A DNA stretch of 64,000 nt, from positions 145,080,001 to 145,144,000 of the forward strand of contig OX597818.1 in assembly GCA_951406725.2 (NCBI GenBank), read 5' to 3'. Both the position numbers and the translations under genes were made by a program. This document shows, one piece after another, positions 3,177 through 55,533 of the stretch. The notes below the pieces were generated by a model. The model ran no database searches, was not told where the DNA came from, and worked only from the letters and a program-made list of their open reading frames with translations. The stretch is from Octopus vulgaris (Eukaryota). Numbering within the stretch: position 1 is the stretch's first letter; each line of letters starts with the position of its first letter.

Positions 3177-3313
3177 CGAGAAGAAAATGGATATAATAAG
3201 AATGGGAACCTTGTGGTTTTCGCTGGTATGTCTTTAATTAAATAGGTAACAAAGAAGGAAGAAGCAGAGATGAGAGTAGCATTTACGATCGTTTCGATTT
3301 ACTGGTTTAAGTA

Positions 3314-4593
3314 CGAGGGGCGTTCAATAAGTAATGCCCCTGACCCACTTCCCATAGCAGTAGAGCAACGACACTTGGCACAGTTATTAGTCTTTTCCTA
3401 CATACGAACTACCCAGAGTTATGCATTTCTCCCATCGTTTGATACCGCTCTGGAGACCGTTTTTGTAGAAGACGCCAGCTTGGTCCTCCAACCACGACGG
3501 GACTTCAGAAATCAAGGCTGCATCATCTGGGAAACGCTTTCCTTTCAAAAGCAACTTCATGGCTGGGAAGAGGTGAAAATCAGAGGGTGCAGGTCAGGAG
3601 ATGGGGGATGAGTTCATAGCCGCACGCCTGTGCTTCTGATCTGGCGACACGCGAGTTGTGGATCGGAGCGTTGTCCTGCAGGAGGATGATGCCTTTGCTG
3701 ATCTTGCCCCGCCTCTTGATTTTGATAGCTTCTCTTAATTTCCTCAAAAGTGAAGCATAATAGGCTCCTGTAATTGTGGTACCCTTTGCCAGGAAATCTG
3801 TCATCACTACTCCGTCCTGGTCCCAGAAGACTGTGAGCATAACATTGTCAGCGGAGGGCTGCACCCTTACCTTCTTTGGAGGAGGTGAGTCACGGTGCTT
3901 TCACTGCATTGACTGGGCTTTGATCTATGGATCATAGTGATGGACCCAGGTTTTATCCTGTGTAATAAGTCTTTTGAAAAATTTGACTCATCTTCTTGGC
4001 ACATCTCCAAATTCATCCTCGAGCACTCAACGCGTTCTTGCTTCTGGAAAGGTGTGAGCAACCTGGAAATCCATCTGGCAGACACCTTTTGGATATGCAA
4101 ATGGTCATGAATGATAGTTTCCACAGACCCCGTACTAATCTTGACCTCATGGGCTATTTAGCGAATAGTTATGCGTTGACCTTCTAAAATGGCAGCCTCA
4201 ACTTGACGGACAGACGTCTCATCAACGGCAGAAGGGGGCGACCAGATCTGGGAGCTGTTTCCACAGAGTTCCGACTATGTTTGAATTCACAATGCCAGCG
4301 TTTTACAAGATCATATGATGGGGCATCATCACCATAAGTTACTTTCATTTCATCAAAAGTCTCCCGTGGTGTGCGTCCTTTCAAATACAAAAACCAGATC
4401 ACTGCTCGACACTCAACAGGCTCCATTTCACACTTGACTCAGTTCAATCACCTGTAAATCAGAAACCACAATTAGTTCAGAGCTGTAATTCGCCACTTAA
4501 TCTATAGAGATATAAATATTTGTACATGCAAAATTTCAGCTAGATCAAACAACTGCAAGTGGGTCAGGGGCATTACTTATTGAACGCCCCTCG
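3314..4593 (-). mobile_element. Full-length mariner transposon (about 1.28 kb) with disrupted transposase
   Basis: TIR CGAGGGGCGTTCAATAAGTAATGCCCCTGACCCACTT at both ends and TA target duplication. Transposase fragments MEPVECRAVI..., WISRLL, MLTVFWD, LLQDNA, DLHPSDF. Frameshifts and stops present. Confidence 0.96.
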
Positions 4594-4792
4594 TAACACT
4601 CTTCAGAATGCGAATATAGATAGATGCATCGGTTAGGATGCGAAAATAATTGATACATATGTGATGGTAATGTAAACAAAGGTATTAAGCCTTACATTAC
4701 ACTTTTGTTCTTTACATTCAATTTTTGTTTACATTACCATCACATATGTATCAATTATTTTCGCATCCTAACCGATGCATCGATCAATATTC

Positions 4793-17474: not shown

Positions 17475-17683
17475 TTATATTTATAAATACATGACCACAT
17501 ACATAGGGTATATATGCATTTAAGCTCGCAAAAATGACATATAACCCCAACACATTCACGCATAAATACATACACGTGCAAATCCATTCACATAAATACT
17601 CATCTACATATACACATAAAAGAACACTCCCTATATATTATTGAATGCATAAAATCATGCATCCGCACATACGCACACACATA

Positions 17684-18686
17684 TACATACATACATACAT
17701 ACATACATACATACATACATGCATGCATACATACATACATACATACATGCATACATACATACATACATACATACATACATACATACATACATACATACAT
17801 ACATACATACATACATACATACATACATACATACATACATACATACATACATGCATGCATACATACATACATACATACATACATACATACATACATACAT
17901 ACATACATACATACATACATACATACATACATACATACATACATGCATACATACATGCATGCATACATACATACATACATACATACATACATACACACAT
18001 ACATACATACATACATGCATGCATACATACATACATACATACATACATACATACATACATACATGCATGCATACATACATACATACATACATACATACAT
18101 ACATACATACATACATACATACATACAGACATACATACATACATACATACATACATACATACATACATACATACATACATACATACATACATACATACAT
18201 ACATACATACATACATACAGACAGACATACATACATACATACATACATACATACATACATACATACATACATACATACATACATACATACATACATACAT
18301 ACATACATACATACATACATACATACATACATACATACATACATACATACATACATGCATACATACATACATACATACATACATACATACATACATGCAT
18401 GCATACATACATACATACATACATGCATGCATACATACATACATACATACATACATACATACATACATACATACATACATACATACATACATGCATACAT
18501 ACATACATACATACATACATACATGCATGCATACATACATACATACATACATACATACATACATACATACATGCATACATACATACATACATACATACAT
18601 ACATACATACATACATACATACATACATACATACATACATACATACATACATACATACATACATACATACATACATACATACATGC
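17684..18686 (+). repeat. About 1-kb (CATA)n microsatellite with CATG/CAGA interruptions
   Basis: Direct reading. Source of the MYVC/IHTY ORFs. Confidence 0.98.
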
Positions 18687-19463
18687 ACTGTGAAACAGAA
18701 ATCTCCTCAAAATAATCTCCGTATACTTCCAGTGTTTATATACCCTTAGGCTATGAAATACTTCTGTTCTCCATACATTATTATCTGAACAATTTGTCCA
18801 AGTAGGCTTTAGTTTTTCGCTTACCAATATTCTACGTATTTTTTTTTTAATCTTTATTTGTTTGCTATTTTTTAATAATCCAAAACCCACAGTCAAAATG
18901 GCGACAGTGTGGTGCAGCAGATCTAAGAACGCCAGAAGCTGTTTTTATTTTCTCTCTAATCTCTTTTTCTTCCCTTTCCAATATCTCCCTTTCCAATATC
19001 ACTCTTTTCTTCCCTTTTCTCTCCTTTTAGTTCTACATCTCTCTGTTTCATTAGTTTAACTGTCTCTAATTTTTTCTCTCTCACTTCCTCACTCAATCGA
19101 AATTCGCACTCTTCTTACACACTCATCCACACTCACACTCTCACTCTCTCCCCGTTCTCTCTCTCATCATTCACCATCGCTTAACTGCCTTCTCTCTTTA
19201 CTCTCTCATGCTTTCTCTCTTCGCCATCTCTATTCTCTCTCCTCTCTCTCATTACTCGCTATCTGTGTTTATTCTTTCTATCATTTTTTACACACTCCCT
19301 TCTACACCGTGAAACTTTCTGGATTTTATTTATATTTTAAGTATTGTTTTTTAGTTTATTTTCCTTATATCTTCAATATGTCGGTTTCAAGAAGCGATTC
19401 ATTTGTATTTGTGTTTATGCATACACTTACGCACAGGCATACACATACAAAGATAAGCGAATT

Positions 19464-33990: not shown

Positions 33991-34301
33991 GGACTATATT
34001 ATCAAATTTGTCCCAAATTTTTTTATATGATAAATTGTAATTTGAGTTTGAGTTGAATTTGGTTGTTTTTTCTTATAAATTGAGCTATCACTTTCAGGTT
34101 TGGCAGTTCGCTCCTTTCCACAGGAGTTTGCTAAATATATGAATCTTCTTCAGAGTAATTAAATCCTGCAAGTCTTAAGCTGACAAAGACTTGGTCAAAG
34201 TGATTATTTTTTCCAGTTTATTTGCTATTTTTTTTCTACAATAGGACAAATTTATATTATTTAATCTCGATCGAAGCAAGTCTCGATAACCTCAGTATAT
34301 A

Positions 34302-35587
34302 CGAGGGGCGTTCAATAAGTAATGCCCCTGACCCACTTCCCATAGCAGTAGAGCAACGAAACTTGGCACAGTTATTAGTCTTTTTCTACATAGCAACCAC
34401 CCAGAGTTACGCATTTCTCCCATTGTTTGATGCAGCTCTGGAGACCGTTTTTGTAGAAGACCCCAGCTTGGTCCTCCAACCTGAACGTGACTTCAGAAAT
34501 CAAGGCTGCATCATCTGGGAAACGCTTTCCTTTCAAAAACAACTTCATGACTGGGAAGAGGTGAAAATCAGAGAGTGCAAGGTCAGGAAAGTATGGGGAT
34601 GGGGGAGGAGTTCATAGCCATACGCCTGTGCTTCTGATCTGGTGACAAGCGAGTTGTGGACCGGTGCGTTGTCCTGCAGGAGGAGGATGCCTTTGCTGAT
34701 CTTGCCCCTCTTGATTTTGATAACTTCTCTTAATTTCTCAAAAGTGAAGCATAATAGGCTCCTGCAATTGTGGTACTCTTTGCCAGGAAATCTGTCATCA
34801 CTACTCCGTCCTGGTCCCAGAAGACTGTGAGCATGACTTTGCCAGCGGAGGGCTGCACCCTTGCCTTCTTTGGAGGGGGTGAGTCACGGTGCTTCCACTG
34901 CATTGACTGGGCTTTGGTCTCTAGATCATCGTGATGGACCCAGGTTTCATCCTGTGTAATCAGTCTTTTGAAAAATTTTGACTCATCTTCTTGGCACATC
35001 TCCAAATTCACGCTCGAGCACTCGACGCGTTCTTGCTTCTGGAAAGGCGTGAGCAGCCTGGGAATCCATCTGGCAGACACCTTTTGCATATGCAAATGGT
35101 CATGAATGATAGTTTCCACAGACCCGGTACTAAACTTGACCTCATGGGCTATTTGGCGAATAATTATGCGTCGATCTTCCAAAATGGCAGCCTCAACTTG
35201 ACGGACAGATGCCTCATCAATGGCAGAAGGGGCGACCAGATCTGGGAGCTGTTTCCACAGAGTTCCGACTATGTTTGAATTCACGATGCCAGCGTTTTAC
35301 AAGGTCATATGATTGGGCATCATCACCATAAGTTACTTTCATTTCATCAAAAGTCTCCCGTGGTGTGCGTCCTTTCAAATACAAAAACCGGATCACTGCT
35401 CGACACTCAACAGGCTCCATTTCACACTTGACTCAGTTCAATCACCTGTAAATCAGAAACCACAATTAGTTCAGAGCTGTAATTTGCCACTCACTCTATA
35501 GAGATATAAATGATTGCACATACAAAATTTCAGCTAGATCAAACAAATGCAAGTGGGTCAGAGGCATTACTTATTGAACGCCCCTCG
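34302..35587 (-). mobile_element. Full-length mariner transposon, second copy of the 3314 family, with frameshifted transposase
   Basis: Same TIRs and TA duplication. Motifs WIPRLL, ITQDETW, MLTVFWD, LLQDNA, PHTFLTL. Confidence 0.96.
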
Positions 35588-36199
35588 TAATTATAACTTT
35601 CCAGGCTTCCATCACAATAGGAACTGTGCTATTACACCATTCTCTTCTTACACTTCCTCAACAATAACATATTATCATTGTTATCAGTATTCTAGTTATA
35701 GGACTGGACACACATGAATATTGAGAGGCAGCACCTTCAGAGAATGAAATGCTGACATGCGATCGTATATACTCTGCATGTGTGGGACGTGACAGAAAGC
35801 GTATATAACACACAAAATGATATTACCCGCATGTTGTAACGTCACACCCAACACATTACATTGATCCGATTACGTCAATCTACATCCCGAGATCAAATTC
35901 AACCAGAGACCAAATCTGGCTTTGTCCTTCCGGTGTCGATATGATGAAGACCAGTTGAGTATTGGAGGTGTACATTCATTCAACTGCATTCCTCCTACAA
36001 AATTTGATTCACTGTGAATATGAAAACAATTGTCGCGGTCGTGGCCGTCATAGTCGTTGTCGTCATCACCATTGCTTACTCTCTCTATACTAACGAACGC
36101 AACTCTGTGTGAGCGCGTGATGTGTTTTGGGTTTGTATTTTCTAATGTGTTGACAGTACTGCAAGTAATATGTGCACAGTGTCTAGTAGTGTTATTTTT

Positions 36200-39187: not shown

Positions 39188-39310
39188 CATATCTGTATAT
39201 ATATGTGTGTGAATGTGTTCTTATATATGAGGCTTTAAAATTGTATCTTACGTTAGTCTGTTGGGATTCAGCGTTGAGTTTACATCAGCGTTATTTTCTC
39301 CATACGACGA

Positions 39311-40610
<1,300 letters not shown>

Positions 40611-40671
40611 GTTTTTGTTGTTGTTGGTGGTGTTGGCGTTGTTTTTGCTGTTAGTACTATTATTAATTATT

Positions 40672-40870
40672 GGGGTAGTACTGGCAGAATCGTTAAAGCT
40701 TCGGACAGGACTGCTTAGCGGCATTTCTTCCAGCTGTTTACGGTCTGAGTTCAAATACCGCCGAGATCAACTTTGCCTTTCATTATTTCGGATTCGATAA
40801 AACAAATACTGGTTGGGCAATGAGATCAATGTAATCAATATCTTACTTCTTGTCCCAAAATATGAAACAA
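40672..40870 (+). mobile_element. Nin-type tRNA-derived SINE
   Basis: CTGGCAGAATCGTTA...GAGTTCAAATACCGCCGAGATCAACTTTGCCTTTCAT. Confidence 0.75.
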
Positions 40871-42785: not shown

Positions 42786-43225
42786 ATATTATTAGTGAAT
42801 GGAATAAATGGAGTTGAACGAAGATTGTACAGAATACCTTTTATTACATTCTACACATGTTTCGAAGGCCACAAATTTCCAAATTCTGTTTAAATAAGGG
42901 TACCATATTGCGGCTTTCTCTTCAGGAAAAAAACAGGAATTCCGTTGACCTGTAGATATCTTCAACGCACCAAATCCCCGATTTCAACGTACATTGATAA
43001 ACAGTTCAGCCATGGGCTCCTAAGGAGCATCTTCGTTCGAATTGCTGTGCCTCTGTTTTGTTTTGTCCTGTCAACGGAATTCCTGTTTTTTTCCTGAAGA
43101 GAAAACCGCAATATGGTACCCTTATTTAAACAGAATTTGGAAATTTGTGGCCTTCGAAACATGTGTAGAATGTAATAAAAGGTATTCTGTACAATCTTCG
43201 TTCAACTCCATTTATTCCATTCACT

Positions 43226-43233
<8 letters not shown>
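42786..43233. repeat. Fold-back element: 164-bp arms (42786-42949 and 43070-43233), 120-bp spacer, ending at (TA)n
   Basis: The arms are reverse complements with one mismatch found by eye. Confidence 0.95.
43091..43170 (+). ncRNA. Type I hammerhead ribozyme with intact core and extended stem II (mirror copy on - strand at about 42849-42928)
   Basis: TTC CTGAAGA GAAAACCGCAA...TTGTGGCCTTC GAAA C ATGT GTA GAA, with AATAAA at 43174. Confidence 0.75.
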
Positions 43234-54705: not shown

Positions 54706-54873
54706 TTGTGTGTGTGTGTATGATGGGGAGGGTCAGTAAGAAACACGTGTGTTTCTTATTTGCAAAACGATCCCACAAAATACAAAGAACATCTGCTTCA
54801 ATACATGAAATTATACCCTACAAAACAAGTACAAAAATCCTCTCTCTCTTTCTCTGCGTGTGTATATATATAT

Positions 54874-55446
54874 TAATAGTTATCGCCAAGCTAACATGGC
54901 AGTCCAGAAAAATAGGACGAATGCTGCCGTTGATTAGCTCCAAGAGGCCATCACCTCTTGTTAGCTATGTGACACACGAACCTGTGTCCATTATAACCTT
55001 TGAACAGGGGAGGTCAGCCGCTTCCCCTTGCCGATCTGGCATCTACAGACTAGTTTCTATGTATTTGCCCCTTATCAATGTAGAACAGCCGAACCAGGCA
55101 GGTGTCGCTACTGACCATCTGTTTGAAGGATTATTTACCTAAATTGTTTGAAAACCAGTGGATGTATTCCACTGAATTTAGGTAAATAATCCTTCGAACA
55201 GACGGTCAGTAGCGACACCTGCCTGGTTCGGCTGTTCTACATTGATAAGGGGCAAATACACAGAAACTAGTCTGTAGATGCCAGATCGGCAAGGGGAAGC
55301 GGCTGACCTCCCCTGTTCAAAGGTTATAATGGACACAGGTTCGTGTGTCACATAGCTAGCTAGAGGCGATGGCCTCTTGGAGCTAATCAACGGCAGCATT
55401 CGTCCTATTTTTCTGGACTGCCATGTTAGCTTGGCGATGACTATTA
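54874..55446. repeat. Fold-back element: 272-bp arms (54874-55145 and 55175-55446), 29-bp spacer, between (TA)n tracts
   Basis: About 7 mismatches between arms. The ORF track shows the same peptide on both strands. Confidence 0.96.
55236..55278 (+). ncRNA. Type I hammerhead-like motif with U3/A8 core variant (mirror copy on - strand at about 55042-55084)
   Basis: TCTACA TTGATAA GGGG caaata CACA GAAA CTAG TC TGTAGA: 6-bp stem I, palindromic ACTAGT, GUC site. Stem II is poorly paired. Confidence 0.65.
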
Positions 55447-55492
55447 TATCCAGTACCGATGCCGTAGTCTCCTTTAGATAGGCTTAGAAATA

Positions 55493-55533
<41 letters not shown>

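Follow-up and report, generated by a model that had tools for sequence, protein, structure and literature searches.

Results

The window (the whole 64-kb stretch of DNA that was analysed) is AT-rich and full of microsatellites, and within it lies an inverted repeat whose arms (54874-55145 and 55175-55446, 272 nt each) are separated by 29 nt (Table 1). As the initial annotation had claimed, this is a 272-bp palindrome with a hammerhead ribozyme motif (TTGATAA…GAAA…GTC) in both arms, and the 'about 7' arm mismatches reported there proved to be exactly 7, of which 6 are indeed A/T in the left arm and G/C in the right. The element exceeds the palindrome, however, and the 29-nt 'spacer' is the 5' part of a longer repeat unit.

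Table 1. Features of the repeat and its junctions (positions in the window)
Feature	Position	Strand	Remarks
Sense copy of repeat unit	55147..55499	+	353 of ~360 nt; GC 45% (0.453)
CAGTGGA/TCCACTG hairpin	55156..55174	+	Part of the unit's 5' region, not a foreign spacer
53-nt tail	55447..55499	+	On one arm only, absent from left arm; family sequence, contigs run through
Inverted, shorter copy	54874..55145	-	Equivalent to 55175-55446; without the first 28 nt and the 53-nt tail
Type I hammerhead motif	55236..55278	+	Helix I 55236-41/55273-78; core TTGATAA 55242-48 (U3 = 55242, A8 = 55247)
Type I hammerhead, helix II part	55249-52/55259-62	+	Loop 2 CAAATA 55253-58; GAAA 55263-66
Type I hammerhead, helix III part	55266-71	+	Palindromic helix III ACTAGT; predicted cut after C55272
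Same type I hammerhead motif, inverted arm	55042..55084	-	
Extended helix I around hammerhead	55220..55291	+	From MFE fold and family letters at 55223, 55224, 55235, 55286 and 55288
Left junction	54862..54878	.	TATTAATAT motif (minus strand, 54870-54878), then short (TA)n
Right junction	55491..55529	.	TATTAATAT at 55491-55499, then (TA)n

Both arms read TCTACA-TTGATAA-GGGG-CAAATA-CA(C/T)A-GAAAC-TA-GTC-TGTAGA, with GTC at 55270-55272. A type I hammerhead descriptor that required a 6-bp helix I without mismatches and allowed positions 3 and 8 to form either kind of Watson-Crick pair matched the window only at the two arm sites (against 2 matches in 100 shuffles of a 64-kb window and 1 in 20,000 shuffles of the unit), and UUGAUAA, GAAA and GUC fit the CUGANGA / GAAA / NUH form with a Watson-Crick 3-8 pair, which here is U-A, a published natural variant. 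The 6-bp helix I and its extension are present in this copy, and neither arm has lost any part of the core, helix I or helix III; the helix III palindrome ACTAGT (ACUAGU) has a predicted self-duplex energy of -6.2 kcal/mol. Stem II had been described as poorly paired in this copy, and the right arm does keep only 2 of 4 pairs, the other 2 being G-A and including the pair at the base, while in the left arm a T at the equivalent of 55261 turns a G-C pair of helix II into G-U. The internal loop of the extended helix I adjoins the 6-bp helix and is a candidate partner of loop 2 (CAAAUA), an assignment made from a Schistosoma structure, as is the mapping of loop 1, near which this copy has T at 55235 as against C in 96-98% of the family. 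Rfam gave 0 matches at gathering score across the whole window and 8 at E up to 10, none of them (0 of 8) a hammerhead, those in the region being to microRNA or sRNA models of hairpin shape and falling short of the gathering score. The initial claim that standard searches miss the variant thus holds for Rfam and this copy (through either the core swap or the broken helix II), but not more widely, as U3-A8 has been searched for explicitly before, with a descriptor that gave ~1,300 matches in Schistosoma mansoni (Cervera and de la Pena 2014, PMC4209133).

The family was assessed in public sequencing runs. The search listed 24 runs, 20 of them with the stretch, from five organisms; none with the stretch was recorded as RNA, six guessed to be RNA (share 0.31-0.41) were left out, and four runs were used, one per organism (A, B, C and E). 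Contigs were aligned to 55140-55500 at a likeness of at least 80% to a U3-A8 query, a threshold at which a distant C3-G8 sister family would be missed. The family is high-copy in all four organisms (4943, 4284, 2647 and 2725 contigs per run), and its contigs cover 28 of the 28 bins of the unit in every run, including the 'spacer' from 55147 and the tail to 55499. A tail-to-head joint from 55499 back to 55147 was found in all four runs (2, 3, 2 and 3 contigs), with 7 letters at the joint in the three rows that show them, giving a unit of 360 nt. Tail-to-head joins made up 10 of the 12 joint rows listed (32 further rows exist), tail sequence preceded 55147 in 30, 27 and 30 contigs of runs X1, X5 and X6, and the share of contigs continuing into unlike sequence was 0.01. 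None of the contigs listed covers a whole unit, and a full dimer with two hammerheads is not among them. At the tail-to-head junction the family contigs carry an AT-rich palindrome, TAGAAATAT-TA-ATATTTCTA, made up of the 7 junction letters together with window positions 55488-55499; the end of this copy falls within the palindrome and may mark a start of reverse transcription.

The CAGTGGA/TCCACTG hairpin, which the initial annotation had given to the spacer, is real (-10 kcal/mol, z = -3.58, 0 of 200 shuffles as good) but not the spacer's own, since family contigs cover its region (55147-55176) with no variant among the rows listed. The idea that this hairpin was the centre of the palindrome, displaced by a 10-nt indel, was discarded for the same reason: family contigs carry 55147-55174 as unit sequence. 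The sense copy as a whole is predicted to fold into a rod with the hammerhead at its tip and 62% of its letters paired (z = -3.6 linear and -3.2 circular, 0 of 60 shuffles as good), and the antisense strand scores alike. No reverse transcriptase or GIY-YIG frame was found at the locus, where a single 100-aa frame in the arm has no Pfam match, nor was a partner Penelope-like ORF found at the locus, and scans with exact patterns returned 0 matches in metagenome contigs, prokaryotic genomes and viral contigs. In size and composition (360 nt, GC 0.453, no Pfam match for the one 100-aa frame) the unit falls within the range of metazoan non-LTR retrozymes, which span 150-450 bp with GC below 50%, those of mussels being 350-390 bp (Cervera and de la Pena 2020, PMC7229834). 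Because tail-to-head junctions in four runs close a 360-nt unit without an ORF, a non-LTR retrozyme-type element is the most likely assignment.

U3-A8 appears to be the majority core of this family in all four runs. Across the 17 positions of core and helix III (55242-55248 and 55263-55272), 0 variants are found among the 40 of 132 variant rows listed, in which the lowest top share is 15.7% and in which majority differences close to the core (55235, 55260, 55262 and 55286) do appear; if, as we infer, these rows are ranked by share, C3 and G8 would each lie below ~16% in every run, with at least 3 T>C places in run X1 falling outside the 40 rows and a smaller minority thus possible. All such shares are of summed contig depth, not of copies. 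The loose-end consensus of more divergent contigs is likewise TTGATAA (X1, 10 contigs, agreement 0.75). The initial annotation had named the family consensus as a check, and CTGATGA with independent decay, the outcome that would have counted against it, is not what the contigs hold. It is accordingly extremely unlikely that the family core is C3-G8 and that TTGATAA came about in this copy through two chance changes preceding the duplication of its arms. In favour of such decay, no changes are commoner in the family than C>T and G>A, and the arms have further private changes in common; but if the majority had C at 55242 or G at 55247, this would appear among the listed rows as the changes at 55235 and 55260 do, and neither appears, so that the family contigs largely refute this reading.

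Helix II, whose pairing in the consensus had also been put forward as a check, is paired in the family majority; the broken form is confined to this copy. Position 55260 is C in 95, 97, 99 and 93% of the four runs, and 55262 is T in 82, 84, 81 and 60% and C in 17, 14, 18 and 39%, all of which pair with G, giving a 4-bp family helix (GGGG/CCC[T/C]) with loop CAAATA. Its base pair is G-U in 60-84% and G-C in 14-39%; the majority G-U is weaker than the conserved G10.1-C11.1, and because most members close helix II in this way, the activity of the family may be low. CpG decay was considered as the source of the T at 55262 and ruled out, as the mirror change at 55263 is absent among the variant rows listed. 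In helix I, 55239 A>G (41, 38, 39 and 2%) stands opposite 55275 T>C (22, 25, 33 and 11%), and these shares, each taken by position, fit pair-keeping variation from A-U to G-U or G-C. Loose-end consensuses at 55289 have CA or AA, not TA, in loop 3 (agreement 0.58-0.71), which would be non-palindromic. A dip in depth over the hammerhead was set aside as evidence, because the differences from this copy are densest there and ends are not visible in contigs. Run X12 (organism E) has its own variant profile relative to X1, X5 and X6, with more G-C at the helix II base and almost no G at 55239, together with a 1-nt deletion in loop 2 in 15 and 9 contigs; this difference in profile suggests that different subfamilies expanded in different hosts.

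These helices bear on whether the family may be a dead relic, in which drift gave rise to U3-A8 in a source element that no longer needed its ribozyme, the swap then spreading by hitch-hiking. Consistent with this are the majority G-U at the helix II base, the spread or persistence of this copy or its template despite a broken helix II, and the report that hammerhead mutations had no effect on insertion by purified PLE in vitro (PMC11167929). We nevertheless regard a relic as unlikely: the two core changes complement each other exactly, while the rest of the core is unaltered in the majority in all four runs; variation in helices I and II preserves pairing; and natural U3-A8 covariation has been reported elsewhere, such pairs being active in vitro (PMC3088659). 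A depletion of single mutants, which had been suggested as a further check, is a weak test in principle because inserted copies decay without selection.

The two arms, which the initial annotation had read as a doubled argument for a selected variant, are better counted as one observation, because in all four runs the family majority differs from both of them at 8 sites (55223, 55224, 55235, 55260, 55262, 55286, 55288 and 55319), two of which are the departures that break helix II. Both arms would thus come either from one template or from later homogenization. Self-BLAST of the 64-kb window revealed no third copy of the arm. Among the 7 arm mismatches, 55439 is the only right-arm change, with the family letter in the left arm, whereas the other 6 have no majority row among the variant rows listed, so the right arm appears to hold the family letter and the left arm appears to have changed at 6 of 7 mismatches. 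Those left-arm changes are mostly ordinary C-to-T and G-to-A substitutions, 3 of them CpG transitions, and although the raw A/T versus G/C asymmetry gives P = 0.031 (6 of 6), changes assigned by arm (6 left, 1 right) do not differ significantly (P = 0.125). A-to-I editing of the right arm as a cause of the asymmetry was rejected, given the family letter in the right arm at 6 of 7 mismatches, the 3 left-arm CpG transitions and 55439 as the sole right-arm change. The family majority has T at 55223 and A at 55288; this copy carries C and G there, which preserves the pair in the extended helix I, and its template possibly belonged to a minor sub-lineage.

Is this copy itself an active, selected U3-A8 ribozyme, displayed twice by its arms? 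In favour of this, each arm retains an intact core together with intact helices I and III, and 55223 C with 55288 G restores a pair that is T-A in the family. Weighing more heavily are the loss of 2 of 4 helix II pairs, the base pair among them, the 8 non-majority letters common to both arms, and the position of the motifs on opposite strands, where they cannot be dimer partners in one transcript. In the predicted fold of read-through RNA, moreover, the helix I pairs have probabilities of 0.0 as against at least 0.999 for arm-arm pairing, such that the hammerhead motif would be buried in a 272-bp duplex. Activity of this copy is thus very improbable; the decayed copy is likely not to cut and, with its broken stem II and its motif buried in read-through RNA, is a poor candidate for the cleavage assay that the initial annotation had proposed.

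Head-to-head arrangements recur in the family, opposite-strand joints accounting for 9 of the 15 joints listed (68 further joints exist). It is scarcely credible that the palindrome instead arose as an artefact of assembly or of the library, or that it is a fold-back DNA transposon whose inverted ends are long: the window's own inversion junction is absent among the 15 joints listed (of which, again, 68 more exist), but the arms differ at 7 positions, have unequal ends and distinct flanks, and inversion points vary between loci, with two of them (55147/55320-1 and 55174/55237) recurring in three runs.

The insertion as a whole has the anatomy of Penelope-type elements, with a head-to-head inverted and shortened copy, a one-sided tail and a (TA)n target; a target-site duplication, which in retrozymes exceeds 4 bp when present, is indistinguishable, since both ends run into (TA)n. 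Head-to-head inversion with an optional tail is a signature of Penelope-like elements (PMC3846280, PMC8557442), and the purified PLE protein mentioned above, whose insertion activity in vitro was unaffected by hammerhead mutations, cleaves AT-rich DNA on both strands and extends them, starting at two internal sites that delimit the tail (PMC11167929). Insertions in these three reports resemble the locus in their inverted 5'-truncated copy placed head-to-head, their tail on one end and their AT-rich or (TA)n target, and differ from it in that the locus has no reverse transcriptase/GIY-YIG ORF, a tail of 53 nt rather than the usual 30-40, and a self-closing unit.

An autonomous Penelope-like element might therefore underlie the whole family, the unit being only its terminal repeat (pLTR plus tail) and the palindrome the stump of two truncated ends. 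The insertion anatomy is fully Penelope-like, the animal U3-A8 cases published in PMC4209133 are PLE hammerheads, and retrozymes and pLTRs are described as related (Li, Clavereau and Pollet 2026, bioRxiv 10.64898/2026.07.22.740005). Yet tail leads to head and head is preceded by tail, so that 360 nt are closed with no room for an ORF and an unlike share of only 0.01; the layout is canonical (6-bp helix I, 4-bp helix II, no extra base after position 9) rather than of the PLE minimal kind; and the arm has a single 100-aa frame with no Pfam match. We judge this origin to be quite unlikely, and retain a retrozyme-type unit as the preferred reading.

Elsewhere in the window, a second head-to-head palindrome (42786-43233, 164-nt arms with 1 mismatch and 120 nt between them, (TA)n on the right) carries an unrelated hammerhead motif of minimal type (CTGAAGA at 43094, GAAAC-ATGT-GTA at 43156-43167); its insertion anatomy is as at 54874-55499, and its core is an ordinary C3-G8. 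A third hammerhead-like motif on the minus strand (41331-41290, CTGAAGG...GAAAC-GTT, 5-bp helix II) has G at position 9 and is probably decayed. The window also holds two 1.3-kb copies of a mariner-type transposon (3312-4596 and 34300-35590, 93% alike), the second with a frame at 34730-35293 that matches Pfam Transposase_1 (E = 1.4e-18), as well as very long (TACA)n and (TAT)n arrays (17538-18944 and 39231-40766, ~1.1-1.5 kb); no tRNA gene was found in it.

Discussion

We consider it probable, on the strength of the sequence comparisons, that the locus holds head-to-head pieces of a high-copy, ~360-nt non-coding repeat, likely a non-LTR retrozyme, in which a type I hammerhead with U3-A8 appears to be the norm, with cleavage at GUC predicted for intact members and likely absent from this copy. 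The core variant is already published and not new. C3-G8 covaries to U3-A8 in several natural hammerheads, where the change has been called compensatory, and such pairs were already shown to be active in vitro (Perreault et al. 2011, PMC3088659); U3-A8 cores were rare examples there, whereas here they are apparently the majority of a high-copy family in four organisms. The minimal hammerheads of S. mansoni Penelope-like elements (Cercyon) share the U3-A8 covariation and, in the supplement, an identical UUGAUAA heptamer (S. mansoni 3), but they have a short helix I, a mostly longer helix II, an extra base after position 9 and little or no helix III (PMC4209133), whereas the layout here is canonical with a CAAATA loop. 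The full-length type I hammerhead of S. mansoni Sm-alpha (PMC2632901) has the same CAAAUA loop 2 and, if our mapping is right, a like internal loop adjoining helix I, in which a U follows the 3' strand and a pyrimidine precedes the 5' strand; its core is C3-G8 (PMC3884650), in contrast to the U3-A8 core and 2-bp helix III here.

The nearest relatives in kind are the metazoan retrozymes (PMC7229834; bioRxiv 10.64898/2026.07.22.740005), with which the family shares a non-coding unit, a canonical type I hammerhead with a weak palindromic helix III, a self-paired fold, head-to-tail junctions and many dispersed copies. It differs from them in its U3-A8 core, in the G-U that closes helix II in the majority, in its Penelope-type inversions and one-sided tail, and in being known here from sequence alone. 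Head-to-head inversions and one-sided tails are not described in the available text of either source, and 'inverted' occurs 0 times in the main text of the 2020 paper. A literature search with most subscription papers, Repbase and the supplement of PMC7229834 (which holds more invertebrate retrozymes) outside its scope turned up neither this family nor a retrozyme with U3-A8, and the family is probably undescribed, although of a known kind.

By analogy with known retrozymes, intact source loci would be transcribed as multimers, in which two hammerheads would pair through the ACUAGU palindrome and then cut, and the monomer would be ligated into a circle. An autonomous Penelope-like element may supply reverse transcriptase and endonuclease in trans; its enzyme would nick both strands of a (TA)n run and copy the RNA from two starts ~50 nt apart, leaving two inward-facing copies with a tail on one. 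With both arms coming from one template, or homogenized later, the two would count once. The swap from C3-G8 to U3-A8 may have occurred once, in an ancestral source element, and spread by amplification, with selection acting on source elements and not on this copy.

A more far-reaching version of this proposal is possible, although we hold it only tentatively and doubt that it is right in full: that the family is an undescribed retrozyme, high-copy in several related animals, whose damped hammerhead (U3-A8, G-U at the helix II base and a 2-bp helix III) would cut only as a dimer in multimeric transcripts, such that the circular monomer stays closed, and whose Penelope-type inversions and tails would be genomic footprints of mobilization by Penelope-like enzymes. 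In vitro, 8 of 9 Xenopus retrozyme dimers did not cleave (bioRxiv 10.64898/2026.07.22.740005), and the enzyme that moves animal retrozymes, as well as the means by which circles avoid recutting, are stated to be open questions in both PMC7229834 and the 2026 preprint.

The U3-A8 swap, being known, itself adds little. A high-copy family that carries it, however, provides a natural setting in which to test the 3-8 pair of a hammerhead that has tertiary contacts, and descriptors confined to CUGANGA can overlook such a family as a whole. In addition, with inversions and tails of Penelope type on a retrozyme-type unit, the question of the mover enzyme becomes testable on genome sequence, and the weak helices of its hammerhead offer a testable answer to how circles avoid recutting.
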